NCBI RefSeq assembly: GCF_037198285.1
Contig: NZ_CP147243.1
Location: 1,642,422 to 1,666,421, forward strand
Origin: Haladaptatus sp. DJG-WS-42
Lineage (GTDB): Archaea; Halobacteriota; Halobacteria; Halobacteriales; Halococcaceae
Reading direction: 5' to 3'
Length of the DNA: 24,000 nucleotides
Shown here: piece by piece, positions 1-20,388 of the stretch
Numbering within the stretch: the stretch's first letter is position 1
Layout: every line of letters starts with the position of its first letter
The notes under the pieces: generated by a model
The model's database searches: none
Seen by the model: only the letters and a program-made list of their open reading frames with translations
Told to the model about the DNA's origin: nothing
Made by a program: the position numbers and the translations under genes

Positions 1-599
1 TTAAGCCGACGGAGCAACGCTTCTTTAATATTTCCTGCTTCCGAAGACGCTTCGACCCTGTCGATGAGATCAGAGAGGTCGTAGTACTTACCGTAATCTT
101 CCTCTGCCTGTTCGATAACCCGGGCAAGGAGGCCTGACTGCGCTTGCGTCTCATCAATGTCGAGGAGAAATAGCCAATCACCGACGTCCAGCTCTGAGGG
201 GTAAAGTTCGAACCCTTTGTGGAAATATTCCTTTGCTTCCTCGTACTTATCCTCCAATCCAGCTGGATAATAGACAGAGACTGGGTACGACTGGGGGGAT
301 AGCCCCCAATCATTCAAACTATCTGATTCAGGATTCTCGACCTGCAAACTCCAGTAGATACCCATTGCATCTACGATGATGCCAGAAAGGTTTCCTTTGG
401 CCGCCGCTGGAAGAGTCATTAGCTCCTCCATTAGAACCCCTAGCGTGTGCGACTTGCCAGTTCCTCGCTTGCCACAAATGGTGACCATATGAGGGTTGTT
501 GAGATCTAGATACACGTCCTCGGTGAGTTCTCCATTAGTGTCAAATCTCCGACCGAGATACGCAGCGAGTTCTTCCTTGTCACCACCGATGAGCGTCAT
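1..599 (-). CDS. HerA/DUF87-like P-loop ATPase, N-terminal part only (3' end lies beyond the window)
   Basis: Hand translation of the minus strand from the ATG at 599-597 gives MTLIGGDKEELAAYLGRRFDTNGELTEDVYLDLNNPHMVTICGKRGTGKSHTLGVLMEELMTL... It has Walker A GKRGTGKS in the context typical of HerA/DUF87 ATPases. I checked positions 1-120 and 450-599 codon by codon and found no in-frame stop; the middle was only read through quickly. The ATG overlaps the TGA of the upstream 1286-aa gene (ATGA at 596-599). The gene is absent from the ORF track because it has no stop in the window. Confidence 0.7.
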   Translation of the reverse strand, partial: MTLIGGDKEELAAYLGRRFDTNGELTEDVYLDLNNPHMVTICGKRGTGKSHTLGVLMEELMTLPAAAKGNLSGIIVDAMGIYWSLQVENPESDSLNDWGLSPQSYPVSVYYPAGLEDKYEEAKEYFHKGFELYPSELDVGDWLFLLDIDETQAQSGLLARVIEQAEEDYGKYYDLSDLIDRVEASSEAGNIKEALLRRL

Positions 600-3500
600 T
601 GATCTCCACCCTCCTGTGTCCATCGTCTTATCAACACGGCCTGCATCATTTCCGCTGTATCAGAGTTGATATCGAGCGCTCTGACTAACTGACGTACCTC
701 CTCTTTGTTATTTAGGTCCTTGACGGCATCATTTAGGCTTGTTCCGGCGACCATTACCTTATCCGGGGAGACAGAACCGCCCAAGTCATGGATGATCTCT
801 TCGAGATCATTCTCGTCGAAGGAGGCTTCTGCGAGCTTCTTTTCTGTGTCAATCCACTGACCCCAGAGACTGTTGTACTGCTTGGCATCAAATTCACCAA
901 GAGACTGGTCCAGCATCTCGGAACATTGGTTGAGGAAGCGTTTCCCCCGATCAAGAAGTGCTTTCTCCCCTTCTGGAATTTGTGGCTCGTACACCTTGAG
1001 CTGTTCTCTCGCACGTTCTATTTTCTCTTCTTCTGTTTCGACGGCACTTGTAAAGCGAGACTGGAGGTTCTCTGAGTCTCTATCCAACAATTCCTGGTGT
1101 TCGGATGAATCGTACTGTTCAACGTTTGGGACGATTTGCCGCCGAGTACGACTGAGGTCCTCGTACACCATGCTGGAGTTAATTTCATCATCAATGAATC
1201 GTTGGATGGTACTCTCGATATCAGCACCTACGATAGATTGGTTGACATCGTGGCTGGCAAGATGGTCCCCAATGCTATCGATACACGAAATCTCGATACC
1301 GCCTGACTCGATATCAACATTACCGTTTATTAGTAAATCCAGGGTTTCCTTGCCAGAGATTACTGAATCCTTTTGACTGACAATATCTTTTGCCTCCTCA
1401 AGCTGTGCTACTAGATGTTCGAGCGAATCGTGGATTAGGAATGGTAGCCCTGCTTCAAATTCGTTGAAGTCGCGTACAGCACTGATGTAGTCCGATACAT
1501 CTGTCTCTGCATACACATCGTACGACTGTATGGTCCGGATACGCTGTTTTAGATTATCGGAATCAGTCGTGAAATCGGTCTCAAGATCCTTCTCAAGTCT
1601 CTTGAGGTCAGCGACGTCATCAATGTCATCCAACTCACCATACTGTTGCTTCAGTGATTCAAGTTTTGTGAGACCCTCGTTGTCAACTCTCCCTTGGAGG
1701 AGAGCTTCCCGCTTGATAGCATCGTGGTATGAGCTTTTTACACTCTCACGAACCACCGTGACTTTACTATCAGGGAGAATAATTTTATCATCAGTGTCAC
1801 CACCCAGCACGAATGGGGCACCATGAAGGCTAACTACCGCCAAGATAAGATACAGATATGCTTTTGCGACGGGTGCTACTTTTGAGGTCCCGAAAACAGT
1901 TTTGACGATCTCGCTGAAGCTTAATTCATCATTCTCCGCCTCTTTGAGTTCCTCCTCGAGTTTGTTGATTACCTTACGGGTACCTTCGCTGAATTCGTCT
2001 GTGACTTCGTAGGAGTCTCCGTCCTTCTTGAGGAACTGCTCTGACTCGAACTCAGAGAACATCTGTCTAAGCTCATCACCAGACTTCTTACCTCGGTCAA
2101 CATTCGGAATATTATTCATCGTTTTTTGAATATCAAAATCAATGCCCTCGTAGAGCAATTTTCCCTTCTCTTGGAGGTTTTTTGTTGCATAGACAAAATC
2201 AAGGACATCTCCCCCAATATGTCCATTCGAGAATCCGAGAAGTTCAGTGACGTATTCTCCATTTCCGTACTGCCCTTTAGCGTTCCTGGTCACGTACCTC
2301 AACACCGAGAACATTCTCTCCGGCGATGTGAGCGCACCTACTTCATCAGGTATCTCTCTCCCGAGGATATCAAGAAGGGAAATGTTGAGGAAAACTCGAT
2401 ATCGCTTGAATTCATCTTCCCCGGGATAGATGTCGTTAATGTATGCTAGAAGTGTGCTGGTACTATTTTCACTATCGATATGTTCATCGATTTGTCTGTT
2501 CAAATCATCTTGAATATCGTCAGAGATGTTTGAAGCTCTATTATGGAGTTCACGGACAACGAATTCAGCCGGACGCTTGTCGTCTTCGCTGGGGCCAAGA
2601 TGGATCCCAAATTTGAGTGCATCAGACTGTTTGATAGCCTCCCACTCTTCCGGAGGTCCCGATGTGCCAACTGAAAGGTACACTTTTTCTGTGTACTGAG
2701 TATCTCCGAGAACATCTATTTCTAGATAATTTGACCTGGAGATGATTTCAGAGCCTCCTTCGAGTTGGGTCTCCAGAGCATCTTTCCAGAGGTCCAGAGT
2801 ACTTTTGATATCTGCCTCGAAATTTTCAATTGTATCCTCGACAAGTTTCGACGTTGGTTTTGTTGGGTCCGTAGTCGCGTTACCTGTGAGTATGTTTTGG
2901 TAGAGCACCAAGTATTCGCCATCACGGTCGATATATTCTGATTGGGATGCTGCCTGCCGAGTTAATTCCTTGACGCTGGTGGTGAGTTCGATTTCAGCAT
3001 CCTTCGCAAGCTGCTCGACTTGTGCAGGAGAGAACAGTGCAGGTTGGTCGTTCCGATTTAGAATTGCTTCACGGGCGATAGCAGTAAGAATCCGTTGGAG
3101 CGAACGTGAGTCTGAATAGTCTTCCTCTATCTGTTCTTGAATCGTTCGTTCCCCAGGCAATTGGCTCAGTTCTGCCCGCTTGATTTTCCCTAATCGGTTA
3201 CGAACTGAATCACCATGCTTGTACAGATACTCCCCATCAATACGACTCTCTCCGTCCCATTCTCGAAGGAACGCCATGAGAATCGTTTTAAAAGCTCGAA
3301 ACGAAAGGACCACGCGATTGTCTCCATCCCCTGCTTTCTGGGAATCGACGACAGAGAGAACAATCTCGAGGGCATCGGTAGTAAATGGATAGGCGTAATC
3401 TTCATCTCCGGACTCGGCATTGTCGAGCGTTTCGTGCCACTCCGGAACCTCGTCACGATAGTCGGTGAGTAATGGATACGTGTAGAGATGATATAGTTCG

Positions 3501-4456
3501 GAGAACAGATGCATTGTCTCCCCTTGCGCGAGGTTAATGCTATAATTCACGCTACCTCTTATTCGATCAACCGTGTCCTCGGGAGCTTGGATGGAATCTT
3601 CAAGCTCCTCCAAACCAACCGAGTTAATGAAGAGAATGTATGGGGGCGCTTCCAAATTGGCGTGCGAGTCCACTGTGCTTCTCATCATCTCCCGGATGAG
3701 TCCTTTTAGGTCGCTTTTTTCGTTTGGCCCAATGCCGCGGAATGTCTGTTCAAACTCGTCAATGTAGAACGCGGGATATTTCCCTTCAGCCTCGTAGTAT
3801 TCTTCGGCAAACCAAGTGACTGTATGATGGGCACCAGACGCTGAGAGAGACTTACAGGCACGAGAAATGTCATCTATTGACTCGGGTTCGTCGAAGAGTT
3901 GTTTGAGTTCGTCGGAGAGTTTTGGAGGCAGGTTATCGTATCTATCTAGCGACAGCGTAGATTTCTCATCGTCGAACCGGTCTAGGAGAACGCGTTCTGT
4001 CAGTTTCTCAGACTTGAGCACCGATTCGTATATAGCGAGAAGCAGTTCGTTAGGCGTGTTGTTATCCTGAAGGCTAATCTGGAAACAGTCGATTTCTGTC
4101 TCGCCATAGGTGAGTTGTGGGAACTCGACACCTCCTATTTCGGTAGGACCTAGGCAAAGGTCGGCGACACATTTCATAAGGACTGTTTTACCAGAGCCAT
4201 AAGCACCGTGTAGAAATACCCCGGGTGTTTCCGTGGTCTGTAAGCGATTGTGGATACTGTTCAAAATCTCTTGGCGGCGGGGAGTGAGTATAAAATCCGA
4301 CTCGTTCTCAACGAATGCCTCGAAGGTAGGGAGGTCGTTCTCATTGATAAGTTTCTGACACTCCTGTCGAACCCGACGGATTGTTTGCTGATCGAGAACC
4401 TGTACAACTTTATCTCGAACATCTTCGTATGACTTCTGCTGTTGTGTCGAACTCAT
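596..4456 (-). CDS. Large (1286 aa) acidic P-loop NTPase, BrxC/PglY-like by size and PglZ neighbourhood
   Basis: This is an uninterrupted 3.9-kb ORF in AT-rich DNA. It has N-terminal Walker A GVFLHGAYGSGKTVLMK and a candidate Walker B AFYIDEFE. It lies in the same operon as a PglZ-domain gene, and its start codon overlaps the stop of the 104-aa gene (ATGA at 4453-4456). The family assignment is contextual and was not verified by alignment. Confidence 0.6.
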   Translation of the reverse strand: MSSTQQQKSYEDVRDKVVQVLDQQTIRRVRQECQKLINENDLPTFEAFVENESDFILTPRRQEILNSIHNRLQTTETPGVFLHGAYGSGKTVLMKCVADLCLGPTEIGGVEFPQLTYGETEIDCFQISLQDNNTPNELLLAIYESVLKSEKLTERVLLDRFDDEKSTLSLDRYDNLPPKLSDELKQLFDEPESIDDISRACKSLSASGAHHTVTWFAEEYYEAEGKYPAFYIDEFEQTFRGIGPNEKSDLKGLIREMMRSTVDSHANLEAPPYILFINSVGLEELEDSIQAPEDTVDRIRGSVNYSINLAQGETMHLFSELYHLYTYPLLTDYRDEVPEWHETLDNAESGDEDYAYPFTTDALEIVLSVVDSQKAGDGDNRVVLSFRAFKTILMAFLREWDGESRIDGEYLYKHGDSVRNRLGKIKRAELSQLPGERTIQEQIEEDYSDSRSLQRILTAIAREAILNRNDQPALFSPAQVEQLAKDAEIELTTSVKELTRQAASQSEYIDRDGEYLVLYQNILTGNATTDPTKPTSKLVEDTIENFEADIKSTLDLWKDALETQLEGGSEIISRSNYLEIDVLGDTQYTEKVYLSVGTSGPPEEWEAIKQSDALKFGIHLGPSEDDKRPAEFVVRELHNRASNISDDIQDDLNRQIDEHIDSENSTSTLLAYINDIYPGEDEFKRYRVFLNISLLDILGREIPDEVGALTSPERMFSVLRYVTRNAKGQYGNGEYVTELLGFSNGHIGGDVLDFVYATKNLQEKGKLLYEGIDFDIQKTMNNIPNVDRGKKSGDELRQMFSEFESEQFLKKDGDSYEVTDEFSEGTRKVINKLEEELKEAENDELSFSEIVKTVFGTSKVAPVAKAYLYLILAVVSLHGAPFVLGGDTDDKIILPDSKVTVVRESVKSSYHDAIKREALLQGRVDNEGLTKLESLKQQYGELDDIDDVADLKRLEKDLETDFTTDSDNLKQRIRTIQSYDVYAETDVSDYISAVRDFNEFEAGLPFLIHDSLEHLVAQLEEAKDIVSQKDSVISGKETLDLLINGNVDIESGGIEISCIDSIGDHLASHDVNQSIVGADIESTIQRFIDDEINSSMVYEDLSRTRRQIVPNVEQYDSSEHQELLDRDSENLQSRFTSAVETEEEKIERAREQLKVYEPQIPEGEKALLDRGKRFLNQCSEMLDQSLGEFDAKQYNSLWGQWIDTEKKLAEASFDENDLEEIIHDLGGSVSPDKVMVAGTSLNDAVKDLNNKEEVRQLVRALDINSDTAEMMQAVLIRRWTQEGGDQ

Positions 4457-4767
4457 GGCTTGATATGATGGAATGTTAGTGCGTGGGACAGTTCGTCTGC
4501 TTTCTCAATTATGTAGATTCGTTCCCCTGAGACCCTATGTTCCTGAATCATGTTTGGATACATTGCGAGGACAATTCGTTTTCCGTCTCCATCGTCAGTC
4601 TCGCGTCTTTGAACACCCGTGGACCATTCTTCACCGAGGTACTGTTGGATATCTTGAATGAATTCTCGAAGTTCGTCGTAACTAGATCGGACGTCGTCGA
4701 TCGTGATAACGGCGATATTCTTTCCGGGCTGACCAATATACTCACGGATGTTAATAATCAAAGACAT
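4453..4767 (-). CDS. Hypothetical protein (104 aa), operon member
   Basis: The ORF fits exactly between its neighbours, with a 1-nt overlap (TAATG) at 4767 and a 4-nt overlap (ATGA) at 4453-4456. Its composition is acidic like the neighbours. I recognised no motif. Confidence 0.6.
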   Translation of the reverse strand: MSLIINIREYIGQPGKNIAVITIDDVRSSYDELREFIQDIQQYLGEEWSTGVQRRETDDGDGKRIVLAMYPNMIQEHRVSGERIYIIEKADELSHALTFHHIKP

Positions 4768-5534
4768 TAGGAAAGTAGTTGGATGTATTCCTTACCACCA
4801 CGACGGTACACTCGAACTTCATTGTCTGCTTCAAGAGCGGACACAACCTCTTCCAGCCGTGAGATATCCCACCCAAACGTCATTACCGCCTTGTCTTCTA
4901 ATGCGGAGTAAGACATCTCTGAGTCTTCTTCACGGATTATTTCCTTGATGAGTGTCCTATCGTCACCACGTAAATTAGTGTATATAGACGGGTTGATTTC
5001 ATACCCGTTATCAACCTTCTCTACAATGCCGAAAGATTGGAGTATACCTCCTATTGTCCCGGCAGTTACGGTGTTTCCTCCTTCCCCCTCCGTCATCAAC
5101 GTGTTAATTTCATCCGTTAGGGAGGAACCGAGGCCATATTTTCCCGAGTGTACCTTATCATCAAAGGCACCGATAGTGCGGTGGAAGTAAGTGAAATTGG
5201 TTCTTGACTTTCGCTCTAGCAATCGGAAGGCTTCTTGTTCAAATCTATCAGCATCCAGGAGTTGGCGACCTTCTTCGGTGAGTGATACAACTCCCTCATC
5301 GTCTCCATGGATGATTTCTATTGATGTGTTGTTGTCATCAAAGGCGAACTTTAGCCACTCGTCAACATCCTTGAATGGTTGAGATTCGCTTAGCTCATTC
5401 TCCTGTTCCATGAGCTCACGAAGCTCTGTTTTCGTGACCTTGTCCTTGTATCCCACCATCTCCACCAAGAGTCTAAGCCCTCGCAAGAACTCTTGACGTC
5501 CGATTCGTGGAATCGATTTATATGTCCTTGTCAT
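4767..5534 (-). CDS. Hypothetical protein (255 aa), possible C-terminal winged-helix domain
   Basis: The ORF overlaps the PglZ gene 3' end by 17 nt (5518-5534). Its C-terminus SYSALEDKAVMTFGWDISRLEEVVSALEADNEVRVYRRGGKEYIQLL resembles a wHTH. It has no catalytic motifs. Confidence 0.6.
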   Translation of the reverse strand: MTRTYKSIPRIGRQEFLRGLRLLVEMVGYKDKVTKTELRELMEQENELSESQPFKDVDEWLKFAFDDNNTSIEIIHGDDEGVVSLTEEGRQLLDADRFEQEAFRLLERKSRTNFTYFHRTIGAFDDKVHSGKYGLGSSLTDEINTLMTEGEGGNTVTAGTIGGILQSFGIVEKVDNGYEINPSIYTNLRGDDRTLIKEIIREEDSEMSYSALEDKAVMTFGWDISRLEEVVSALEADNEVRVYRRGGKEYIQLLS

Positions 5535-8271
5535 GGAATGTCAGTTTAGCAGATGTCATCTCACTGATTGAGGTACCACCGTGATAAGCATGTGCCTTTG
5601 GTACATTCTTAGACACATAACGAGATAACAGGCCGATAGTTGGGTTGTCAAAGATGCTATTGCCTGCTGGCAGATATGTATCATATCCAAACTGAAATAC
5701 GTCTATTGGAGCCGGTGCTGGTTGCCATGCGAACAGATACTTCGAACCGGACACAACAAATGGCTCAGACTGGATAGCTCTGAGTACCTCTGAATCAGAA
5801 GCCGATTCACAAGAGTCTGGTCCGAAATCCCGTGCTCGCTTGACGAGAGTCACATCGCTGAAGTCCCCAATCCCTAGGAGAATTGAATCCTCTCCATCAT
5901 CGAATCGGGCCTCTCCCAGGTTCAATTTATGTGCGTGCAATACATCCACTCTGTCACTCAAGCTACTCTGGGTGAACCTCTCCTGATTGCGTACATCCAA
6001 TACGAGATCTCTTTCTTGTCGGGTGATTTTTCCATGATCTCCCCCTATAACTAATTTCGGGGACTCATCGTGACTGTATTCTGAAATCAATTCCCCAACA
6101 GTCGAGACTAATTCGTCGAGGAAACTCCCTAATGATCGATAATAGTTCTCGAATTCGAACTCTGCCAAGTTTTTGTGCAATAGTGAATCGAAGTCTTCGA
6201 TATAGACTACGAAGGTATCGTTGAGTGCTTCAATCCGTTTTTCGAGATGTTCTGACGGAGCATCTGCATTTCCTGTGAGTAGTTCTTTCCGTTCTTTGAG
6301 GTGGGACTCTAGCTTATTCTCAATCTCTTCATTGATTTCTTCGAGGTTACCTTCTCTTTGGAAGTCTTCCGTCAGCTTAATATTAGCAACCTTTCGAGCG
6401 AAGCGAGTTATGCCAGAGTCGTTGAATTTATTGTTTTGAATTAATTTATAGGATAAATTCGATTCTTCGCCAATGAAATCAAGCTTGTCGAGACTAACCC
6501 TGTTTTTTAGATTAAGGGCCTGATCTTCATTTTTCACTGTCCAGTTGTAGATTCCTGTTCGTTCAGCTGGGAGCCCTGTTAGAATCGTCGCCATTGCTGA
6601 CGGAGTATAGGATGGTATATTCGAGTATAGTGGCTCGACATCAACAGATGGAGAATAGATATCCCACTGTTCCATCAGAGCGAAGTCCATGAACCCAAGA
6701 CTGTCAATGATGACAACTATTTGCAGATCCTCACTTTCGTCGTCAATAAGTTCAGAGATATGATTTCGGTCGGGATTGTCAACAAGACTGGGGTACTCCT
6801 CCACAAGGGCATCGGAGAGCTCGTCGTACTTATCTACCATCGCTTGATGGTACGCATCGGTCCCCGATTCGCCATCTATATTAGTTGTGATAAACTTGGC
6901 CCACTGACTGAAGAATTCTGGAGCAGTATCCAGTGAAGCGTCCATCTGCTGAATCCTGTCTGCCTCAGCTTCAGCTGCACGCCGATATTCCACTCTTCGA
7001 CGGGCCTCCGCAATGGCCGGAATAGAAGTAGACTCTAATCTGCTACCCTGACCACTTGCACGGGCCACTTCGTATAACTCCTCCAATGGGGAAACCCAAT
7101 CCTTGGAATGGAACTCTTCTTCGATAATTGGTGAGCTACTGATGAGTTGTACCTCACTGACACACTCCAGGATAGAATCCACCTGATTGAATGCTTCTTC
7201 TCGCCCTGTAGGCGGTCGATCTCCAATTCGATCCGCTTCCATTACCAACTTATCACGCACAGAAAGTAGAAGCGATCTGATTTCTTCCTTGGAGGCATCT
7301 TGGTATAACAGCCCGAAATATTGTATAAGTGCATCAGCAGCGTCCTCCGGACTCCGCTGGTTGATTCGCTTTTCGGAGTCGAATAGACTCTGATAACCTC
7401 TTTGAACCTGTTCGATGAACTCTCGCCCCCCGTGACCTGCTAGCTCAAGTAACTCGTTGTTGAACAGACGGCCTTTGAGAAGTCTCTCGCGAGCAAGATC
7501 TCGGAACAGTGTCTTAACCTCACCATCTAATGCTCTCCATCGTGTTACAAACTGCCCAGTCTCGTCACCGTACTCGGTGCCATAACGTCGACATATTCCA
7601 TACTCGTATACCTGCCTCTGTGCCTTCTCGGGAAGGTTCTCAAATCGTTCTACTGACCGGACGTCAAGCACGTCCAGATAGAACTCACGGAATTCATCTC
7701 TCTCGTCGCTAAATGATTGATATGAAACGTACATATCCCATGTGTCACCGATCTCTGTCGTCTCGAATACGGAGAGACTAGGGATATTGTCCAGCGCATG
7801 ATTCAAATACGCTTGAAGAAGGAAATCCGGCAACCGAGTGGGGAGATGTTGGACATGATCTCCAGTCAGTTTTTTGTAAACTTGTCTTCTAACATGGTTA
7901 GGATCGTCTATTTCGAAACTCTCCGGCTGAAAAAAGCGTGTTCCACGGCAAGAGTCTATTTTTTGCACAAGTGGTGATGGACAGAAGAAAACAACATTCC
8001 CAGAACCGTCTTTTTTTATGATGAACTCCACGGCAGCAAAGATCGTCTCTTGTAGTTCCTTTACATTAGACGGCATCGGTAATGCGCGTGTAGTATCCAA
8101 GTCGCCGATTAATACGTTGAGTGCTCGCTTACTCTCTGGGATAGGATAATTGGTTGGAATATAGTTGATACCTCCAGACTTTTCCTGAAGTCTCTCTTTG
8201 GTGTTCTCCAAACCATCCAGAGGTTCAAAGGAGAACCATTCCTCAATAGTTTTTGATAACTCGTGAATCAT
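5518..8271 (-). CDS. pglZ: PglZ-domain (alkaline-phosphatase superfamily) protein, 917 aa
   Basis: Three PglZ-type motifs are present: the metal-binding Asp context VVIIDSLGFMDF, the nucleophile loop SNIPSYTPSAMATILTGLPAERTG, and the C-terminal AYHGGTSISEM (HGG-S-x-x-E). It is the first gene of a five-gene overlapping operon. Confidence 0.8.
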   Translation of the reverse strand: MIHELSKTIEEWFSFEPLDGLENTKERLQEKSGGINYIPTNYPIPESKRALNVLIGDLDTTRALPMPSNVKELQETIFAAVEFIIKKDGSGNVVFFCPSPLVQKIDSCRGTRFFQPESFEIDDPNHVRRQVYKKLTGDHVQHLPTRLPDFLLQAYLNHALDNIPSLSVFETTEIGDTWDMYVSYQSFSDERDEFREFYLDVLDVRSVERFENLPEKAQRQVYEYGICRRYGTEYGDETGQFVTRWRALDGEVKTLFRDLARERLLKGRLFNNELLELAGHGGREFIEQVQRGYQSLFDSEKRINQRSPEDAADALIQYFGLLYQDASKEEIRSLLLSVRDKLVMEADRIGDRPPTGREEAFNQVDSILECVSEVQLISSSPIIEEEFHSKDWVSPLEELYEVARASGQGSRLESTSIPAIAEARRRVEYRRAAEAEADRIQQMDASLDTAPEFFSQWAKFITTNIDGESGTDAYHQAMVDKYDELSDALVEEYPSLVDNPDRNHISELIDDESEDLQIVVIIDSLGFMDFALMEQWDIYSPSVDVEPLYSNIPSYTPSAMATILTGLPAERTGIYNWTVKNEDQALNLKNRVSLDKLDFIGEESNLSYKLIQNNKFNDSGITRFARKVANIKLTEDFQREGNLEEINEEIENKLESHLKERKELLTGNADAPSEHLEKRIEALNDTFVVYIEDFDSLLHKNLAEFEFENYYRSLGSFLDELVSTVGELISEYSHDESPKLVIGGDHGKITRQERDLVLDVRNQERFTQSSLSDRVDVLHAHKLNLGEARFDDGEDSILLGIGDFSDVTLVKRARDFGPDSCESASDSEVLRAIQSEPFVVSGSKYLFAWQPAPAPIDVFQFGYDTYLPAGNSIFDNPTIGLLSRYVSKNVPKAHAYHGGTSISEMTSAKLTFHDKDI

Positions 8272-8719
8272 GACATTAACGACCTAGCCGTACTAGTAAT
8301 ATTTTTATGAGATAGTATATCAAGCGACATAATATCTTCGGGTAGTCTCGAAGAAGCAGAACTAAGCAGAAAACTACGAATCTCCAGAACAACTCAAAGC
8401 CGGATAGTAATGTGTCGGCCTGAGAAAGGCGTGGCAAACATGACTTAGGTAAGTATTCCAGCTCAGACGGGGTTTTAATCTACACATCGTTAAATGTGAT
8501 TTTAGATGATGGTTATATTTTAGCATAATGTAGTGCCGTACGGCTCGAGGCAGAGTGTTGGTTTCCAATTCAAGACCAGGGGCTGAACCGTGCCTACTGA
8601 TGTTGTTCGAATTGGTCGCTCTGGTTATGTGACAGACCTACCTGCTGATACCTGTCTGTGTTAGACCTCACCGAGTTACGAAGGGCCTATTACATACAGA
8701 ATTGAATCACTGATAGAGA
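8272..8719. promoter_or_regulatory. Divergent promoter/control region between the PglZ operon and the TGT operon
   Basis: This is a 448-bp AT-rich non-coding spacer between divergent first genes. There are TATA-like A/T runs near both genes: ATAAAAATAT on the minus strand at about 8305-8316, and CTATTACATA at about 8685-8694, about 30 nt before the ATG at 8720. An inverted repeat ACAGAC...GTCTGT lies at about 8633-8660. Promoter positions are guesses. Confidence 0.35.
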
Positions 8720-10768
8720 ATGCGAGGCTTCCGAGTAAATCACCGAGGTGAAGACGGGTATGGGCGCCGAGGCCAACTCCACGTTCGGAGAGGACCTGTA
8801 GAGACACCCGCACTCTTCCCCGTGATAAACCTCATCGGAGGCAGCACCCTTGCGTCAGGTAGCGGATGGCGACATTTTAGAGATAACATCCTCCACACCG
8901 AAGAACTCCAAGGAACGATGTTTCAGGCTATGAGTTTCTTGGACTATGGTGTCACGGCCAACACACTTCGTCGGTGGCGGCAGCGCACATTTGAGGAGCA
9001 TCTTCAAAACTGGGATGAGTGGGATAAATCTAAACATATCAATTCTCCCATTTTTATCGACTCGGGTGGCTACCGCCTGATGAATTCGGATACGTTCGGT
9101 GAAGCGCCTACAGAGGGTGGTGCTGAGAATGAATGGGGAATTTATACCAATCCGGATAGTGTCCTGAAATTGCAAGTAGATTTTGGCGGGGACATTTTTG
9201 CGACATTAGACTACCCTATTCCCCCAGATCTTAAAGAAGATGAGCAAGATGAGCGGATGGAACGCAGCATTGAGAGCGCTGTTCGTTGTTTAAAACTAAT
9301 AGATGACCCTGACAAGATCGAAATTCTGGAAGATGGGGATGAGAAAACCGTTGAGCGCTTGAAAAATAGAAAAGCAGCTGACGAAGAACCAGCCGTCTTT
9401 GTCGCGATCCATGGCCACGATCATGAGACGATTCATTGGTATGTTTCTGAGTTCTTAGAACGAGCAAAAGAAGAGGGAGTAAGTGACCAGTTCCACGGCT
9501 TTGCTATCGGCTCGTTGGTTCCGCTACGTTCGAAGATTGATGTTCTAGTCGATATCGTCCAGGGTGCCACCGAAGCGATCGGAGACCGAGACGATATCGC
9601 ACTTCACGTATTCGGTATTGGAGGCAAGCAGGCATCCCTATTGTCATTACTTGGGGTTGACACATTTGATTGCTCCAGCCATATGCAATCTGCTCGCTTC
9701 AAAAAATACCTCGTACCGGAAACGTGGGACAACGTAAAACTCAAAGATATTGACAACTATCTGACTAGTGGTGGATGGCCCTGTAACGTACCAGAATGCC
9801 CGTTGTGTAGTAATTCGACAGAATTGATCCCAGATGAGTTCATGAGTTATGTCGATTCTGAGGATGGGATATCTCCTCAGAAATTTAAGGAACTGATATA
9901 CAGAGAAGCGACGTATGGTCAAGATGGGTTCACAAAGGGATGGCTGTACGGCTTGCTTGCCCGTCACAACTTTTCGGTATATAATCGAGAGATGCAGCGT
10001 GTGCGGAACGCAATTGATGAGAATTGGTTGCTCGACTATGTCATTCAGTGGGCTCGCAAAGACGATCAAATTGAGCGTGGACTAAAGCGAGCTCAACTTA
10101 GGAATCCAGAACTTGAAGCAGAGCTGAAATCACGCGAGGCATATGACCTACTTTTAGGCTCTGAAATTGCAACCGACCAAGTGAAACTCTCTGAGTTCGG
10201 TGCCGATTTCCCTGAGGTGGAATCTAACCGGATCTCGCTGAAACATACTCCACGAGATTTCAATATTGCGAACAAGGACTACGATCCACATCGTGACGAT
10301 AGTTCTAATAAAGACATTCTACTGATTATTCCATGTAGCCAGCGAAAGCCCTACTCTGAATCTCGTACACACAAAGCTGTGCTCAACAGACTGGAGCCAG
10401 TGAGAGATCGAATCCATAAAGTTACAATCTCTGGTATGTATGGCCCAGTTCCAGAGACAGAGGAAACAGCAGACGCTGTGCTGGAATACGAATATGTTCT
10501 GGCCAAACAAGATACAGAACAAATTGAACTCGTGACAGAACGCCTGGTTGATTACCTGCGAACTCACGGTGATTCATTCGACACCATTGTCAGCTATGCT
10601 GTGAGTAAGCAGTACCGGCAAGTCATCGAGAAAGCGTTCAGTGAATACGGACGAGGAAGTGTATTCCCAACGGATCCTGAAATGTTAGGATTCAAACAGC
10701 ATTACAAGCGAGAGAATATACGTGAGTTACAAGAATTCCTAAGCGTTCCTGAGCAAGAATTGATTTAA
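8720..10768 (+). CDS. TGT-fold (tRNA-guanine transglycosylase superfamily) enzyme fused to an ArcS-type C-terminal domain, 682 aa
   Basis: The N-terminus is typical of TGTs (RRGPVETPALFPVINL). TGT catalytic-type motifs are IFIDSGGYRL, HGFAIGSLVP and HVFGIGGKQASLLSLLGVDTFDCSS, plus a Cys cluster CNVPECPLC. The C-terminal domain carries PCSQRKPYSESRTH (10331-10372). This matches exactly the PC-X3-KPY-X2-S-X2-H signature reported for archaeosine synthase ArcS. Confidence 0.8.
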   Translation: MRGFRVNHRGEDGYGRRGQLHVRRGPVETPALFPVINLIGGSTLASGSGWRHFRDNILHTEELQGTMFQAMSFLDYGVTANTLRRWRQRTFEEHLQNWDEWDKSKHINSPIFIDSGGYRLMNSDTFGEAPTEGGAENEWGIYTNPDSVLKLQVDFGGDIFATLDYPIPPDLKEDEQDERMERSIESAVRCLKLIDDPDKIEILEDGDEKTVERLKNRKAADEEPAVFVAIHGHDHETIHWYVSEFLERAKEEGVSDQFHGFAIGSLVPLRSKIDVLVDIVQGATEAIGDRDDIALHVFGIGGKQASLLSLLGVDTFDCSSHMQSARFKKYLVPETWDNVKLKDIDNYLTSGGWPCNVPECPLCSNSTELIPDEFMSYVDSEDGISPQKFKELIYREATYGQDGFTKGWLYGLLARHNFSVYNREMQRVRNAIDENWLLDYVIQWARKDDQIERGLKRAQLRNPELEAELKSREAYDLLLGSEIATDQVKLSEFGADFPEVESNRISLKHTPRDFNIANKDYDPHRDDSSNKDILLIIPCSQRKPYSESRTHKAVLNRLEPVRDRIHKVTISGMYGPVPETEETADAVLEYEYVLAKQDTEQIELVTERLVDYLRTHGDSFDTIVSYAVSKQYRQVIEKAFSEYGRGSVFPTDPEMLGFKQHYKRENIRELQEFLSVPEQELI

Positions 10769-10842
10769 TTTAGACTTTGATCTACCTACGACTCAAGTAG
10801 TACTGTCGGAAGAATTAAGACATCTTGGTCTGACTTTCCGTT

Positions 10843-11286
10843 ATGTCGACTCTGCTGGTTCAGTCCTGCTCTAAATCAAAGAATTCACCAGGGAGAGCGG
10901 TTCCTGCGATGGAATTGTATTCTGGATATTACTACAAAATTATCAAAAAAGCGAGAAGAGAAGGGGATCTTAGATCGGATATTGACATCTGTATCCTCTC
11001 CGCAAAATATGGACTAATTGATGCAAACGCAGAGATTACAGAGTACGATCAGAAGATGAATCGGGTGCAGGCTCTCGATTTGCAGGAGGATGTCGAAACA
11101 ACCCTAATCAAGAAATTGAAAGAGAATAATTATAAAAAAGTCGTCATTAATGCAGGTGAAGATTATCGAGTTGCACTTAAAAGATTCATTCAGAATTCTG
11201 ATATTGAAGTCGAGGTATTACACGGTCAGCTCGGAGAACGTGGAAGCGTTCTGAAAAAGATGATTCGTGAATCACAGAACACATAA
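10843..11286 (+). CDS. Small stand-alone paralog of the ArcS-type C-domain (DUF6884/DUF5591-like), 147 aa
   Basis: The motif order is shared with residues about 535-650 of the upstream protein: LLVQSCSKSK vs LLIIPCSQRK, ILSAKYGLI vs ISGMYGPV, and ITEYDQKM vs VLEYEYVL. It lacks the KPY..S..H part of the signature. The domain-family name is from memory and was not searched. Confidence 0.55.
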   Translation: MSTLLVQSCSKSKNSPGRAVPAMELYSGYYYKIIKKARREGDLRSDIDICILSAKYGLIDANAEITEYDQKMNRVQALDLQEDVETTLIKKLKENNYKKVVINAGEDYRVALKRFIQNSDIEVEVLHGQLGERGSVLKKMIRESQNT

Positions 11287-11289
11287 CAA

Positions 11290-12537
11290 ATGCCAGATTT
11301 AACTCAACGCAGCAAGTATGCTGACTTTTCCATAACGTCGACTGCTGGAGAAGCACGCACTGGAGAGTTAGTAGTAGGTGAGAAAAAATTTGAAACACCC
11401 ATGCTCTTCCCTGTCATCAATTTCTATGGTGGTGGGAGAAAAGGGAGCCTATTTGGAGGAAGCACCCACAGAACAGTAAAAGAGCTTATTAATGGGGATG
11501 ACTGCGTCGGCGGCGTTTCTTGCAGCGAATATTTCCCGGGCTCTATGCTTTCAGTTGGGTCGCTAACTGACTATGGAATCAGCGAATCTTTACTGAAGAC
11601 GTATCTGGAGAAACCAATTAGCGAAAGACCGGAATTCTCTGGATTTGAGGGATTGTTATTCGTCGACTCTGGTGGGTTCAAAAATCTCTCACAAGGCGGT
11701 TTAGACGGCTCTGATTTTCAGATGGAACTCAACCAACACCGCGTGTTCGACATGCAACGTCAGCTTGGTGGTGACATCCTCGTCAACCTCGACCTCCCGA
11801 TTACCGAGGATGACACGTATGAAGAACGCATCGAGAAAGCAAAAACAACAGCAGAAAATGCAGTTGAATTTGCTCGGCACACTCAATCATACCCATGTGC
11901 TGCGTATCTTTCTGTCCATGGCTATGATTATTCGATGATCGATACCTTCTTTGAGCAAGTCGAATCCGTGTTTGGTTCTCTCGATTTGACTGAGATATTT
12001 GATGGAATTGCCTTGGGAAGCCTTGTACCAAAAAAGGACAACAAGTCTACTCTCATCGAAGCGATTTCTGGTTGTAAGCAGGTGATGGCTGAACGAGGCT
12101 TTGAGAATCATCCATTACACGTGCTAGGGATCTCCGGGAAATCGATGCCACTGTTAGTTGGGCTGGGCGTAGATAGCTTTGATTCGTCATCCTACATTCA
12201 AGCCGCGATCAATGGAAAATACTACACGTCTTTCTTGGAGACTGAACGCGTTGATGACGTTGATTTGACTAAGTGCGACTGCCCAGTCTGCTCTTCACCC
12301 CTTCTTCGGGAACGGATGAAAGGGAACGCCGAGTATCGAAAGGACCAGATGGGCCCTGTTGCTGTCCATAATATGATTATCCAGCAAAAGGAGTTGTCGA
12401 GAATGCGCAAACTGATTCAGAGCGGTCCGGAAGCCTTCGTGGATTATCTTGGAAACGAACTCGGACGTCACCGGTCAGTCGGACGATATGCCCACGATGT
12501 TGTTAACAAATCATTCGGAGGATACGATGGAATATAA
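11290..12537 (+). CDS. Compact TGT/DpdA-like transglycosylase, 415 aa
   Basis: The N-terminus is ARTGELVVGEKKFETPMLFPVINF. Motifs LFVDSGGFKN, DGIALGSLVP and HVLGISGKSMPLLVGLGVDSFDSSS are present. It has a canonical zinc site CDCPVCS-X-H: Cys codons at 12274, 12280 and 12289, and His at 12367, giving exactly 25 intervening residues as in bacterial TGT C318/C320/C323/H349. It has no PUA or other C-terminal tRNA-binding extension. It starts 3 nt after the previous stop. Confidence 0.8.
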   Translation: MPDLTQRSKYADFSITSTAGEARTGELVVGEKKFETPMLFPVINFYGGGRKGSLFGGSTHRTVKELINGDDCVGGVSCSEYFPGSMLSVGSLTDYGISESLLKTYLEKPISERPEFSGFEGLLFVDSGGFKNLSQGGLDGSDFQMELNQHRVFDMQRQLGGDILVNLDLPITEDDTYEERIEKAKTTAENAVEFARHTQSYPCAAYLSVHGYDYSMIDTFFEQVESVFGSLDLTEIFDGIALGSLVPKKDNKSTLIEAISGCKQVMAERGFENHPLHVLGISGKSMPLLVGLGVDSFDSSSYIQAAINGKYYTSFLETERVDDVDLTKCDCPVCSSPLLRERMKGNAEYRKDQMGPVAVHNMIIQQKELSRMRKLIQSGPEAFVDYLGNELGRHRSVGRYAHDVVNKSFGGYDGI

Positions 12538-14095
12538 ACCAAAAGTCAACGAAATCAACGAATTCCTGGAAATTGCAAGCGACTTTGAGGATCCGTTAGA
12601 ACTAATCAGAGAGTCACTATCCAACTCTTACGATGCCGGTGCAACTGATGTGTTAATCCGGATTCGAACTGGAGCAACTGGATCTGACATTACTATCGAA
12701 GATGATGGCGAAGGCATGAGTCAGCGAGACTTGGAGTCTTTCTTCGACTTAGGTAACTCCAGAAAGACAGATGGGATCGGGTACAAAGGCCACGGGACCA
12801 AAATATTCTACAAAAGCGATGGAATTAAAGTAAATACTAGCAAGAACAAAAAAACGCTTCATGCGGAGATGGAGCAACCTTGGGAGAAGCTCAATAACCG
12901 TGAGTTACCAACCTATTCGGTCACTGAACACGATGCCCCAGCGGAGCGGTCTGGAACACAAATAAAGATTCAAGGGTTCAAGTCTGGGGAAGGGTTTAGC
13001 CCTGAATCACTCACCTACAACAAAATCCACAACTATCTGAAGTGGAAGACGATTGCGGGCTCAACTGGTCACTTCTTCGAAGACGATTCACGAGAAATGA
13101 ACATCACCGTCGATCTCGATTCTGGGATCGATGACACAATGGATGAGCTTCAAACGACGAATCACTTTGAGTTCCCCCGTGAGCAATTGCGCCCTGGCAC
13201 AGGTGACTTCCCAGAGGAGCGAATGTGCAAGCACTATGGCCCAATAGAGCTCGAAGTTCCCTTCGATGGTGGTCATACTACATTAGAGATCGTCGGAATG
13301 GTTGGCGGGAAGGCGGCTCGAAATGAGTTGCCAACATACGGTCGACACTCAACGCAGTTCGGTATCTGGCTTGCAAAAGATCATATCAAAATTGAGCGGC
13401 TCAACGAAGCGATCTCTCACGATAACGAATTCATTCATTTCTTATTCGTTGCAAATTGCCAAGATATCGAACTCTCAGCGAACCGAGGGAAGATTCGAAA
13501 TAAGGCGAGCAAAGTTTACCAGACAATAGAAGAAGAGCTCAACCATTACCTCTCAAAAGTTGCTCGCGACCCATGGTTCAAGGAGTATCTGGAAATTCGA
13601 AAGCGAGCCAGCATTTCTCGACAGGCGCAGACGCATTCAGAATCGGTTTCTCAGAGAAAGGAACGGATTCACTCTCGTAATTCATTTGAGCCCACAAACG
13701 TGGCTGAGGTCCTTTTAGGACTCCAGCATTCGAACCGCTTTGAATCAAACAACACGGTTACGATCGAAGACTACCAGCCAGCAGAAGAGGTTGAGGCAAT
13801 CGTTCGTATTGGAGATGACCTCTTGGGTTCCTCACTGCAACAAGCGGTCGTGGATTTCTTCGACTCTGGAACTCCCCTGGGCTCTACTGAACAAATCATC
13901 GCATGGGAACTCGGGGACCTTGATAAGTTGCGTGAGATTGAACGAAAAGGTTACTTAGACGCTGAAATTGAATGTGACTTCGACAAGCCTGAAGTTCGAT
14001 ATATGCGCAACGGAAAAACCGAGCACATCGATATCCTGCTCGTTAAACCTCGGTTCCACAGAACAGATCAATTGGCCCAGACACTGGCTGAATGA
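12527..14095 (+). CDS. GHKL (HATPase_c / MORC-like) ATPase
   Basis: Bergerat-fold motifs are present: N-box RESLSNSYDAGA, G1 IEDDGEGM and G2 GYKGHGTK. I prefer the ATG at 12527 (MEYKPKVNEINEF). It overlaps the upstream gene by 11 nt. The ORF-track start at 12449 would overlap by 89 nt. Confidence 0.8.
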   Translation: MEYKPKVNEINEFLEIASDFEDPLELIRESLSNSYDAGATDVLIRIRTGATGSDITIEDDGEGMSQRDLESFFDLGNSRKTDGIGYKGHGTKIFYKSDGIKVNTSKNKKTLHAEMEQPWEKLNNRELPTYSVTEHDAPAERSGTQIKIQGFKSGEGFSPESLTYNKIHNYLKWKTIAGSTGHFFEDDSREMNITVDLDSGIDDTMDELQTTNHFEFPREQLRPGTGDFPEERMCKHYGPIELEVPFDGGHTTLEIVGMVGGKAARNELPTYGRHSTQFGIWLAKDHIKIERLNEAISHDNEFIHFLFVANCQDIELSANRGKIRNKASKVYQTIEEELNHYLSKVARDPWFKEYLEIRKRASISRQAQTHSESVSQRKERIHSRNSFEPTNVAEVLLGLQHSNRFESNNTVTIEDYQPAEEVEAIVRIGDDLLGSSLQQAVVDFFDSGTPLGSTEQIIAWELGDLDKLREIERKGYLDAEIECDFDKPEVRYMRNGKTEHIDILLVKPRFHRTDQLAQTLAE

Positions 14096-14097
14096 CG

Positions 14098-15252: not shown

Positions 15253-15430
15253 AGATACTACAGTTAATTTTCAGTGTAAAATAGGTGATCCCATAACCAC
15301 AGTCGGCAAGTGATGAAGGAACTTGTGAGCGAAGAAGGAACCGAAAAGCGTCGTGAGGGTGACGTCAACGGCCTCTACCCATCGGGGCAACCACGTGGTT
15401 TTCAACTTTCTTATCCAAAGAAACAGAACT

Positions 15431-16438
15431 TCAGATGTTGTCGAGAAATCCCCTCCGTTGTTCCATCTTATCGCGCTCTCCTCGCTGATCGTAATGCTTC
15501 TCAATCACGTCTGGACTCACATTCGCCCGGTCGCTGACCACGCGCTCTGGTACATCTTCGGACAGCCAGTACGTAATCGCGCCGCGCCGCACGTGTGGTG
15601 AGCGGCTTGATGGACACCGAGACACTGAATTACGATTCGTCGCCTCACACGTCTCGACGTCTCTGTCGTGCGGACATCCATCGGTGTAGAAGCACGGACG
15701 GGTCACCTCGTAGATGATGTGTTGAATGGTACTGTGGTGGAGTCGCCCTTGCTTCGATGCCAGCAGTGGCTCTCGTCCGGCATCGTCGGTTACGTCGGGA
15801 CGCTGGTCGGCCAGCCAGTCATCCAGCAACTCACACATCTCGTCCGAAAGCGCGACGTAACGCTCCCCTGACTCCTGGTTGTTCAGGGGAATTCCCGTGT
15901 CCTTCCGGTGGACAGTCTGGATGTACTGCTCCTCCGAGTCGTAGTCGTGAACGTCGAGTGCGTACATCGCCCCGCGGCGCATCGCTGTCCGCCACGCAAG
16001 TGTCAGGATGACGTGCCGGACCGAGGCGTATCGGTACATCTCAAGATACGTGAGTACTTGCTCGGCTCGCTCGGCGTCGAGCATCTCGGTTCGCACGGCG
16101 TCGCTCGCCGAGAGGATTGGCAGTTGGACCTTCGTGTGGAGGTCGGGGTCGACTGCATCGATGGATTCGAGGAACTTGATAAACACGCGGATGGTGACCA
16201 TCTGGGTCTTCTCGGAGACTTTGGACAGATCTCCGTCGTTTCTCCGCCAGATGCGGTACTCGTAGAGCGTCCGTCCGGTGAGATTGTTCAGGTTCTCGAT
16301 GTTCTGGTCGTGACACCATCCAACGAAGTACCGAAGTCGGGAGCGGTGTGACTGCAGGGTCTGGACGGCGACTTCGTTCCGGCGATGGTCGAGATACAGT
16401 TCGAGTGCGCGCTCGGGTGCGATTGGTTCGAGTGTCAT
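15431..16438 (-). CDS. Tyrosine recombinase / phage-type integrase (XerC/D-like), 335 aa
   Basis: It has an N-terminal SAM-like core-binding region (LELYLDHRRNEVAVQTLQSHRSRLRYF). The catalytic motifs are AWRTAMRRGAMYALDVHD (Arg), SPHVRRGAITYW (H-x-x-R) and VIEKHY (Tyr). It is GC-rich, unlike the adjacent island. Confidence 0.9.
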   Translation of the reverse strand: MTLEPIAPERALELYLDHRRNEVAVQTLQSHRSRLRYFVGWCHDQNIENLNNLTGRTLYEYRIWRRNDGDLSKVSEKTQMVTIRVFIKFLESIDAVDPDLHTKVQLPILSASDAVRTEMLDAERAEQVLTYLEMYRYASVRHVILTLAWRTAMRRGAMYALDVHDYDSEEQYIQTVHRKDTGIPLNNQESGERYVALSDEMCELLDDWLADQRPDVTDDAGREPLLASKQGRLHHSTIQHIIYEVTRPCFYTDGCPHDRDVETCEATNRNSVSRCPSSRSPHVRRGAITYWLSEDVPERVVSDRANVSPDVIEKHYDQRGERDKMEQRRGFLDNI

Positions 16439-16459: not shown

Positions 16460-16803
16460 ATCTCACGACTGGGCAGACCGCAGCTAGCCGGACCCAATTT
16501 TGACGGGAGATGTTGTTTTTCGTTCGTGGGTCGAACTTTCTCCCGTCGGGTCCGTTCGATTTTGTGGCGATTCGGAATCACTCGACAGCGCCTCCCCCTT
16601 ATAAATTCTCTCAGAATTCTGAGGGGAGAGTCCGCCACGCAGCATACCGCCTGCGTTTCGCGGGCCTGCTGGCCATCGGTTTGCAGAGAGTATGAGGCGT
16701 CAAAGCTTCATCTCTATTTTGACCCACTCCAGCACAGGTTGTCCGGCCACAACACCCGTGAACCACCCCCCAGTATTTCCAGTTGCTTGACGTCTGTTGC
16801 GGT

Positions 16804-19158: not shown

Positions 19159-19185
19159 GGTGTTGGTTGAATCGGGTTCTCGGAC

Positions 19186-19929: not shown

Positions 19930-20009
19930 GGCCTATCCTCGTGTCGTGGTGACACGTTTCGTCTAAATGTACACGAGACAGGCTAATAAGGCCGGTAGTA
20001 ACACCGAAG

Positions 20010-20345
20010 TCAGTAGGTGTCGTTGCCGTCAGGGCCGACGCGAATTGGGTCGTCGCCAGCGTGTTCGAGGACGACGTCGTGGCGCGCGTGACGGACGTGG
20101 GTTTCGGCCCATCGCCGCGCCGGGCCTTCTGACAGGAACTGTTCGCCGTCGGGACACTGGCGGCAATCAGCTATCCACGGCGTCACCGCGTCGGGGAAGT
20201 GGCCGGTGTGGCGCATGTGGTCTAAGGCGAACTGTTCGAACGATTGGTTTCCCACCCCAAGATTATCGAGTTCGTACGAAAGGCTCCACTCACGGTCACA
20301 CCGCGAGCAGGTAATCGTTGGCGTGTCGTCTACAGGCTCGGTCAC
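20010..20345 (-). CDS. Small hypothetical protein with two CxxC / His-rich motifs (possible zinc-binding)
   Basis: It contains CSRCDREW...HMRHTGH and CRQCPDGE...HVRHARH. Its composition is balanced and acidic, whereas the opposite-strand 115-aa ORF is Arg-rich. Confidence 0.55.
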   Translation of the reverse strand: MTEPVDDTPTITCSRCDREWSLSYELDNLGVGNQSFEQFALDHMRHTGHFPDAVTPWIADCRQCPDGEQFLSEGPARRWAETHVRHARHDVVLEHAGDDPIRVGPDGNDTY

Positions 20346-20388
20346 GACTCGAGATACGCGGTGCGCCCACTTCTAAGTGAACTTCTTC

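Follow-up and report, generated by a model that had tools for sequence, protein, structure and literature searches.

How a BREX-like defence system would recognize self DNA when no methyltransferase is encoded beside it is the question raised by a gene cluster in the haloarchaeon Haladaptatus sp. DJG-WS-42. The known self marks of BREX-type systems are methylation and, in type 4, phosphorothioation. The window, the whole 24,000-nucleotide (nt) stretch that was analysed (contig NZ_CP147243.1, positions 1,642,422 to 1,666,421, assembly GCF_037198285.1), opens with five overlapping minus-strand genes, hereafter the cassette, whose products include a PglZ-like protein, a large BrxC-like ATPase and a HerA/FtsK-type ATPase. 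The original prediction for this DNA described the cassette as lacking any modification gene, but the span that it covered, 1-8271, stops just short of a second operon (8720-14095, plus strand). This operon lies 450 bp upstream of the PglZ-like gene on the opposite strand, encodes two TGT-family transglycosylases, one of them fused to an ArcS catalytic domain, together with a DUF6884 protein and a GHKL ATPase, and co-occurs with the cassette across loci; it belongs to the same system, and that part of the prediction does not hold. With moderate confidence, we interpret the two operons as a restriction-modification-like immune island of about nine core genes, in which a 7-deazaguanine base, instead of a methyl group, would be the self mark. 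As a system it is real and rare, and it is coherent in computational terms; all of its functions are those that we infer from this analysis.

Two linked gene modules

Related loci (designated by ‘L’ numbers) were collected as the contexts of ATPase homologs, supplemented by 23 more metagenomic loci, and all of their open reading frames (ORFs) were classified with jackhmmer. The linkage count was restricted to 20 non-redundant loci with usable flanks. A comparison of neighbourhoods across relatives, which had been proposed with the original prediction, found the cassette order invariant and deazaguanine genes (TGT-DUF5591, DUF6884, TGT, GHKL and/or queD, queE and queC) beside the cassette in the visible flanks of 17 of these 20 loci, with folE additionally in L001. 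The relative orientation of the modules varies, being divergent in the window and L003, convergent in L002, L005, L013 and L022, and co-directional in L001 and L012. An exhaustive search also led to two remote PglZ-like proteins, P0070 and P0071, each 18% identical to the window’s and each encoded in the same five-gene cassette; a GHKL gene and a TGT-DUF5591 homolog follow one of these cassettes, and a DUF6884 homolog precedes the other. Linkage persists in the remote branches L035 and L036, at a PglZ-like identity of about 15-18%. Loci L017, L020 and L035 have a G+C (GC) content of 29-30%, compared with about 45-58% for the rest, and therefore represent a different lineage, showing that the association extends beyond the loci of about 45-58% GC; in all three the module is minimal, consisting of GHKL and a single TGT fusion of about 640 amino acids (aa).

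Both families are very rare, which makes chance co-location unlikely. The ATPase family comprises just 24 clusters among 5.8 billion proteins, and an exhaustive profile search found about 10 full-length and about 8 remote members of the PglZ-like family among 1.84 billion representatives; a thin first PglZ-like alignment (A1) returned 3 proteins from the 5.8-billion-protein set. Among the loci and sequences examined, the set of GHKL, TGT and DUF6884 genes was encountered only together with the cassette. Given this rarity and the co-location in 17 of 20 loci, the pairing of cassette and module is a functional association and not an accident of neighbourhood. The original prediction assumed instead a BREX-like/HerA cassette with no self mark, for which the TGT operon would be an unrelated neighbour in a defence island. 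Such an arrangement would agree with the modules being separate transcription units of varying orientation, sometimes with other genes between them, and with three loci (L014, L015 and L028) that show the cassette without visible TGT genes. We regard it as unlikely, since the co-occurrence reaches into the lineages of 29-30% GC and to very low protein identity, and since both gene sets are so rare.

The cassette is a conserved operon and not a series of chance ORFs, because the same gene order recurs across about 30 loci from genomes and metagenomes, with ATPase identities of 25% to 100%. In the window, the four complete ORFs and a fifth minus-strand frame, which begins with an ATG at 599 and stays open for 199 codons until the window ends, overlap by 17, 1, 4 and 4 nt, exactly as first described. 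Elsewhere the genes overlap or nearly abut, and the order of PglZ-like, 255-aa, 104-aa, ATPase and HerA genes is invariant in all loci whose contig reaches far enough. The original prediction was also right about what the cassette omits: the window and the annotated or scanned related loci contain no methyltransferase of PglX or other type and no PAPS-reductase gene, including the BrxP of type 4, and no BREX subtype fits the gene set.

The first cassette protein, of 917 aa, begins with a region of about 500 aa, comprising an alpha/beta domain and then a long helical region, which precedes its PglZ-type domain (Table 1). It passes the Pfam cutoff for Phosphodiest (33.5 bits, 4.6e-8) and falls below that for PglZ (19.3 bits, cutoff 25), which remote relatives straddle at 25-30 bits; no PADLOC PglZ model matches it. 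An alignment of 19 diverse homologs shows no variation at residues D523, T556, D745-H746, H897-G-G and E904. In a profile of the wider family, these D, T, DH and HGGxSxxE motifs line up with the PorX domain of PglZ type (4.6e-5), and the aligned threonine is the position mutated in the phosphatase-null PorX entries 8thp and 7pvk. As judged from these residues, the metal and nucleophile site is intact. An AlphaFold (AF2) model (pLDDT 86) has as its top Foldseek match in the PDB 9zn5_B, the PglZ of an Acinetobacter BREX BrxC-BrxB-PglZ complex (1.3e-8), followed by PorX and then NPP enzymes. A PDB profile search with alignment A1 gave nothing useful.

The 1286-aa ATPase, which matches a hypothetical protein of Haladaptatus sp. 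DJG-WS-42 at 100% identity, has Walker A (GAYGSGKT) and Walker B (YIDEFEQ) motifs that are invariant in 22 homologs. Its Pfam matches are generic (AAA_16, AAA_22 and NACHT-type), and models of BrxC_BrxD, DUF6079 and DUF499 match none of the 22 family members, nor does any such model in PADLOC. The AF2 model of residues 1-1200 (pLDDT 87.5) has 9zll_A, a BrxC N terminus complexed with BrxB and PglZ, as its top Foldseek match in the PDB (7.7e-6, TM 0.21/0.39), with ORC/Cdc6 ranking just behind; a PDB profile search with the ATPase alignment (A4) gave nothing useful. The naming of these two proteins as PglZ and as a BrxC/PglY-type ATPase, made originally from the sequence, thus survives for the fold of both and for the motifs of the former, but it finds no counterpart in the family models. 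Taken together, the structural models and motifs argue for a BREX core at the level of fold and motif, not of sequence family. A PADLOC run on the window, akin to a check of the whole contig proposed at the outset, likewise matched no PglZ or BrxC model; its matches included DpdA, DpdC and PDC-M57A. BrxC-like and PglZ-like proteins can evidently diverge beyond current defence-finder models, and such systems are therefore under-counted.

The two small proteins are encoded in every locus, and the order of 255-aa protein, 104-aa protein and ATPase parallels brxA-brxB-brxC. Neither has a match in Pfam, PADLOC, NCBIfam or the PDB. The L002 homolog of the 255-aa protein weakly matches DUF7343, and we infer that the 255-aa protein binds DNA through winged helix domains. 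The alignment of the 104-aa family contains zero invariant columns and no conserved Walker A motif; because no residue is invariant, this protein is probably a non-catalytic adaptor. The last cassette gene runs off the window. Its HerA/DUF87 assignment is confirmed by Pfam, its Walker A motif (GKRGTGKS) is visible, and the remainder beyond position 1 was deduced from homologous loci, in which full-length homologs have 410-424 aa and are always the final cassette gene. The best model for a full-length homolog is PADLOC mad8, which matches over the whole length (6.5e-26). In the related loci no NurA, PglX or nuclease partner follows HerA, the next gene being on the opposite strand or unrelated.

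The divergent operon would supply the chemistry. The 682-aa fusion consists of a TGT-family domain and an ArcS C1 (DUF5591) catalytic domain, has no PUA domain, and matches the archaeal transglycosylase ArcTGT in the PDB (1iq8, 1.2e-10). It keeps the catalytic DSGG and DTFDCSS motifs (the transglycosylase Asp pair), the zinc cysteines and the exact ArcS motif PC-x3-KPY-x2-S-x2-H (PCSQRKPYSESRTH at residue 538), as defined in PMC10516641. The 415-aa TGT, when aligned to 1iq8 (catalytic residues of ArcTGT from PMC5699537), matches D95 and D249 as well as the CxCxxC and HN elements of the zinc site, and these motifs are conserved across loci. Like DpdA, it stops short of the tRNA-binding domains C2, C3 and PUA, and NCBIfam scores it at 30 bits for DpdA (cutoff 200) and 116.6 bits for ArcTGT (TgtA; cutoff 350). 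We predict that it is a DpdA-like DNA guanine transglycosylase. Both paralogs look active, with the ArcTGT Asp pair and zinc site kept, and neither has PUA, C2 or C3 domains.

The DUF6884 protein of 147 aa matches PADLOC PDC-M57A (1.8e-15) and, over just the N-terminal 50-60 residues of the DpdC models, DpdC (1.2e-6). It keeps the CxxxK (CSKSK) and LSAxxG (LSAKYG) motifs described for a family that is predicted to bind DNA and flip bases (PMC11701544), and its sequence places it in the YaaA/DpdC/DUF5591-related ‘cantaloupe’ fold family. With their motifs intact, the candidate nitrile-modifying domains, ArcS C1 and DUF6884, look active. The GHKL gene has a longest ORF of 548 aa; an alternative ATG at 12527, which gives 522 aa and overlaps the TGT stop, is the likely start. 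In every locus that carries it, the GHKL gene directly follows a TGT gene. Beyond GHKL, L003/L027 (1296-2690) and L021 (1983-2435) have a second DUF6884 paralog at the place taken in other loci by the TGT-DUF5591 fusion; an unassigned 312-aa gene precedes this paralog in L003/L027.

Relation to known defence systems

The closest published relative is BRC (BREX-Related Capture), described in NAR in 2026, which comprises PglZ, a DUF6079/BrxC-like ATPase, an active STAND NTPase, DUF4007 and HerA/FtsK, and occurs in 45 taxa, haloarchaea among them, with GNAT and TGT genes in a subset of loci (PMC12839542). The first conclusion, that the cluster matches nothing named, is only partly true in view of this related composite of HerA, BREX-like and TGT genes. 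The BRC paper reports no DpdB or DpdC homologs and nowhere mentions QueF, QueC or GHKL, and the accessible portion of its supplementary text does not name Haladaptatus (PMC12839542). The four-gene modification module is undescribed in that paper.

Two haloarchaeal BRC loci were recovered, L010 (Halohasta litchfieldiae) and L011, with the order QueF-like, TGT (344 aa), 247-aa protein, STAND NTPase (171 aa), ATPase (1322 aa), PglZ (371 aa), HerA and GNAT. A QueF-like gene stands directly before TGT in both (L010 7697-8125; L011 7722-8150, also 6607-6993), which suggests that BRC may also modify the preQ0 nitrile, to preQ1 or G+, rather than stopping at dPreQ0.

The window’s system resembles BRC in having HerA/FtsK, a protein with a PglZ-like fold, an ATPase of about 1,300 aa with a BrxC-like fold that is preceded by a protein of about 250 aa and a small protein, and TGT-family genes, of which the window has two. 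Like BRC, it has been predicted by comparative genomics only. HerA, universal in BRC, provides the homology: identity between the L001 homolog and the Halohasta BRC HerA is 35% (E 1e-84), and both systems’ proteins best match mad8. The other components differ. Their ATPases, PglZ proteins, proteins of about 250 aa and small proteins show no similarity between the systems by BLASTP or hhalign. For the ATPases, BLASTP gives no signal and hhalign a probability of 8%, and Pfam BrxC_BrxD, which weakly matches the BRC ATPase (20.2 bits), matches none of the window’s family. The hhalign probability is 0.7% for the 255-aa family against the BRC 247-aa protein, which in haloarchaea itself has no Pfam match, so that sequence comparison is a weak guide for this pair, and 0.1% for the 104-aa family against the STAND NTPase, which is active in BRC, whereas the 104-aa protein has no Walker A motif. 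The PglZ-like protein has 917 aa and is encoded first here, compared with 371 aa and a place after the ATPase in haloarchaeal BRC. No GNAT gene is found in the window or in annotated related loci, and a QueF-like gene is also absent from the system; in its place is a separate four-gene module (TGT-DUF5591, DUF6884, TGT and GHKL), often with queD, queE and queC. With four of five components showing no BLASTP or hhalign similarity, the system was not assigned to BRC and is therefore classed as a sister of BRC with a different, richer deazaguanine module. A short RQIVPN string is common to the window’s ATPase (residues about 1101-1111) and that of L010 (10513-14481; residues about 937-947). V1109-P1110 are invariant in the window’s family, and hhalign left the positions unaligned; the likeness may be chance. 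A profile search of genome contigs with a BRC GNAT alignment derived by optical character recognition found one unrelated Anaerolineales locus, L009.

BREX (types 1-6, Goldfarb et al. 2015) shares, at the level of fold, the pairing of a PglZ-type phosphodiesterase with a large BrxC-like AAA+ ATPase, whose top structural matches are the Acinetobacter BrxC/BrxB/PglZ complexes, and its brxA-brxB-brxC order is paralleled by that of the small, smaller and ATPase genes. The window’s system has no PglX, BrxP, BrxL, BrxHI/II or PglW, and its proteins match none of the BREX sequence models (BrxC_BrxD, PADLOC PglZ and BrxC, and Pfam PglZ at its cutoff); it adds a HerA motor, and its predicted mark is a 7-deazaguanine. 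BREX membership was rejected in view of the missing PglX and BrxP.

Dpd (Thiaville et al. 2016; Gedara et al. 2023, PMC10164549) follows the same restriction-modification-like logic, with a TGT-family transglycosylase that inserts preQ0 as self mark, an ATPase partner, a YaaA/DUF328-related enzyme acting on the nitrile, and preQ0 genes that are sometimes linked. The parts are different: the window’s transglycosylases derive from archaeal ArcTGT and not from bacterial DpdA, a GHKL ATPase stands in place of ParB-like DpdB, DUF6884 and an ArcS C1 domain replace DpdC, and the restriction side is BREX-like with HerA. Among PADLOC Dpd models, DpdA and DpdC matched in the window and none of DpdD-K did. 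Membership was rejected for want of bacterial DpdA, DpdB and DpdD-K; by analogy, the 415-aa TGT would be a functional counterpart of DpdA and not a member of its family. MADS (bioRxiv 10.1101/2023.03.30.534895), whose mad8 is the best match of the HerA-type ATPase over its full length, uses a methyltransferase and is reported from bacterial groups only. No match to mad1-7 was found, and MADS was rejected with only mad8 of the mad6/mad7/mad8 core matched.

A candidate mechanism and its alternatives

The two modules can be combined into a scheme of marking and restriction. In this scheme, preQ0 would come from the host archaeosine pathway, or from the queD, queE and queC genes (plus folE in L001) that lie beside the system in many loci, and the 415-aa ArcTGT-derived transglycosylase would exchange it for guanine in genomic DNA. 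The GHKL ATPase probably assists this enzyme, as the ATPase DpdB does for DpdA, which needs it in bacteria (PMC10164549). The ArcS C1 domain of the 682-aa fusion, the DUF6884 protein or both would then convert the dPreQ0 nitrile to a further derivative. The likeliest product would be 2′-deoxyarchaeosine (dG+) or an amide- or adduct-type relative, because phage ArcS2, which consists of an ArcS C1-type domain alone, turns dPreQ0 into dG+ in DNA (PMC10516641). On the restriction side, the 255-aa and 104-aa proteins would take the positions of BrxA and BrxB, the BrxC-like ATPase and the PglZ-type phosphodiesterase/nuclease would assemble like BREX BrxB-BrxC-PglZ, and the HerA/FtsK-type motor would feed or hold DNA, so that DNA without the mark would be nicked or blocked. 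The company that the cassette keeps fits an immune role: in L002, CBASS genes (SMODS cyclase, Cap2 linker and ThiF/E1 protein, 2675-5705) lie directly upstream of it, and Schlafen/AlbA_2 genes are present in L001, L007 and L008.

A further-reaching proposal, which we put forward tentatively, is that archaeal chromosomes carry dG+ or a new preQ0-derived base as a self mark, written by the ArcTGT-derived pair with GHKL and read by the PglZ/BrxC-like/HerA machine. To our knowledge, reports of dG+ are confined to virus DNA. If true, the proposal would add a third BREX-type self mark to methylation and phosphorothioation, and the system would be an archaeal counterpart of Dpd made from different parts. 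A 7-deazaguanine mark was proposed only in 2026, for a subset of BRC loci (PMC12839542). The present family offers a cleaner test case, with a deazaguanine module beside nearly every informative locus, and the module is elaborate: it encodes a pair of transglycosylases, the catalytic domain of ArcS, a relative of DpdC and a GHKL ATPase, and often has its own preQ0 synthesis genes.

Several observations weigh against this two-module interpretation. In L014, L015 and L028 no deazaguanine gene is seen in the visible flanks, which are short or one-sided. The single TGT fusion of L017 and L020 has a C-terminal domain without the ArcS C1 motif, which in L017 shows weak DUF6884 similarity, and the final chemistry may therefore differ between branches. 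The likeness of the ATPase and the PglZ-like protein to BREX proteins is at fold level only, with low TM values of 0.2-0.4, and no similarity is detectable between the 255-aa protein and BrxA or DUF4007 or between the 104-aa protein and BrxB or STAND. DNA as the substrate is deduced from domain loss and gene linkage alone, and the model does not account for two apparently active transglycosylases in one module.

Alternatively, the island could be a mobile element that uses 7-deazaguanine as anti-restriction camouflage, with a cassette that serves maintenance, partition or DNA transfer and not immunity. An integrase adjoins the system on a low-GC island, the L005 cassette has as neighbours an integrase gene and a gene of the DUF6610 family (DpdA4-type, archaeal-virus), DNA transfer is among the functions of HerA/FtsK ATPases, and viral 7-deazaguanine DNA marks are anti-restriction devices (PMC6884629, PMC10516641). 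However, searches of 72,556 plasmids and 2.9 million viral contigs found no relative, genes for capsids, conjugation or replication are absent around the cassette in every annotated locus, and a BrxC-like and PglZ-like pair in BrxA-B-C-like order is the hallmark of BREX-type immunity, all of which makes the camouflage explanation quite improbable. That the TGT, ArcS-like and DUF6884 genes are extra copies for tRNA archaeosine, for example to counter viral attack on tRNA, is highly improbable: the best matches of both TGTs are indeed archaeal tRNA enzymes (1iq8 at 5e-20 and 1.2e-10; NCBIfam TgtA and ArcS) and the preQ0 genes are the ones that tRNA modification also uses, but both proteins have no PUA or C2/C3 tRNA-binding domains, NCBIfam scores are far under equivalog cutoffs (116.6 versus 350, for example), and the genes are linked to DNA-acting partners (GHKL, the DUF6884/YaaA-type DNA binder, the HerA motor and the BrxC-like ATPase). 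The two-module model accounts for the linkage better than any of these alternatives.

The island and its surroundings

Table 1. Features of the 24,000-nt window, with positions, strands and principal matches.
Feature	Position	Strand	Matches and remarks
HerA/FtsK-type ATPase, first 199 codons	1..599	-	Pfam DUF87 7.5e-12; cut by window edge; last cassette gene
AAA+ ATPase, 1286 aa	596..4456	-	ORC/Cdc6-type N-terminal half, BrxC-like fold; long helical C-terminal half
104-aa protein	4453..4767	-	No family match; position of BrxB in BREX, STAND NTPase in BRC
255-aa protein	4767..5534	-	No family match; position of BrxA in BREX, DUF4007 in BRC
PglZ-like protein, 917 aa	5518..8271	-	First cassette gene; C-terminal alkaline-phosphatase-fold (PglZ-type) domain
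Intergenic region, 448 bp	8272..8719	.	Between two divergent operons
TGT-DUF5591 fusion, 682 aa	8720..10768	+	Pfam TGT 1.9e-29, DUF5591 2.1e-15; NCBIfam ArcS alpha 3.6e-23
DUF6884 protein, 147 aa	10843..11286	+	Pfam DUF6884 1.8e-16; weaker H2O2_YaaD and DUF5591 matches
ArcTGT-derived transglycosylase, 415 aa	11290..12537	+	Pfam TGT 3.3e-24; PADLOC DpdA 3.4e-8; PDB 1iq8 5e-20
GHKL (HATPase_c_3, MutL/MORC-type) ATPase	12449..14095	+	Pfam HATPase_c_3 2.1e-12; NCBIfam MutL and BbrUII-type N-terminal matches
Accessory gene, 384 aa	14098..15252	-	No library match; N-terminal PD-(D/E)xK-like motif YPDIIG...FAIEVKG, read by eye
Tyrosine recombinase (integrase)	15431..16438	-	Pfam Phage_integrase 2.3e-8 and Phage_int_SAM_1; edge of low-GC island
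GvpL/GvpF-family gene	20634-21413	-	Gas-vesicle cluster
gvpG	22740-23111	-	Gas-vesicle cluster
GvpL/GvpF-family gene	22975-23703	-	Gas-vesicle cluster

The cassette genes sit on a low-GC island, as seen from the GC profile of the window (44-50% across 1-15000, compared with 58-64% across 19000-24000) and from the recombinase at its edge. The promoters of both operons are presumed to lie within the region that separates them. A search of the whole window found no tRNA gene, which rules out a tRNA gene as integration site within view. The 384-aa protein has zero matches in the Pfam, PADLOC and NCBIfam libraries, and its homologs adjoin the system in two other loci only, L012 (4627-5817) and L002 (15220-16371, where the gene is split); from its motif, it may be an optional nuclease accessory that is linked to the system only sometimes.

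Other loci show traces of their own. In L001, the cassette is flanked by a second, truncated copy of the C-terminal GHKL half (15220-16122, minus strand) and by two DDE transposase fragments (5017-5905, minus strand), which are signs of rearrangement and decay. Just upstream of the L005 cassette, near the integrase, lies the DUF6610 gene (4965-5696, minus strand), of a family renamed DpdA4 in archaeal viruses (PMC10516641), and beside it a 678-aa gene of unassigned family (2855-4891, minus strand).

Beyond the integrase, the window continues with a TrmB-family regulator (16783-17604, plus strand), a glyoxalase-family protein (18547-19158, minus strand) and a pirin (19186-19929, minus strand). 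The gas-vesicle genes that follow to the right of the island (20634-23703, minus strand) lie in the high-GC host region.

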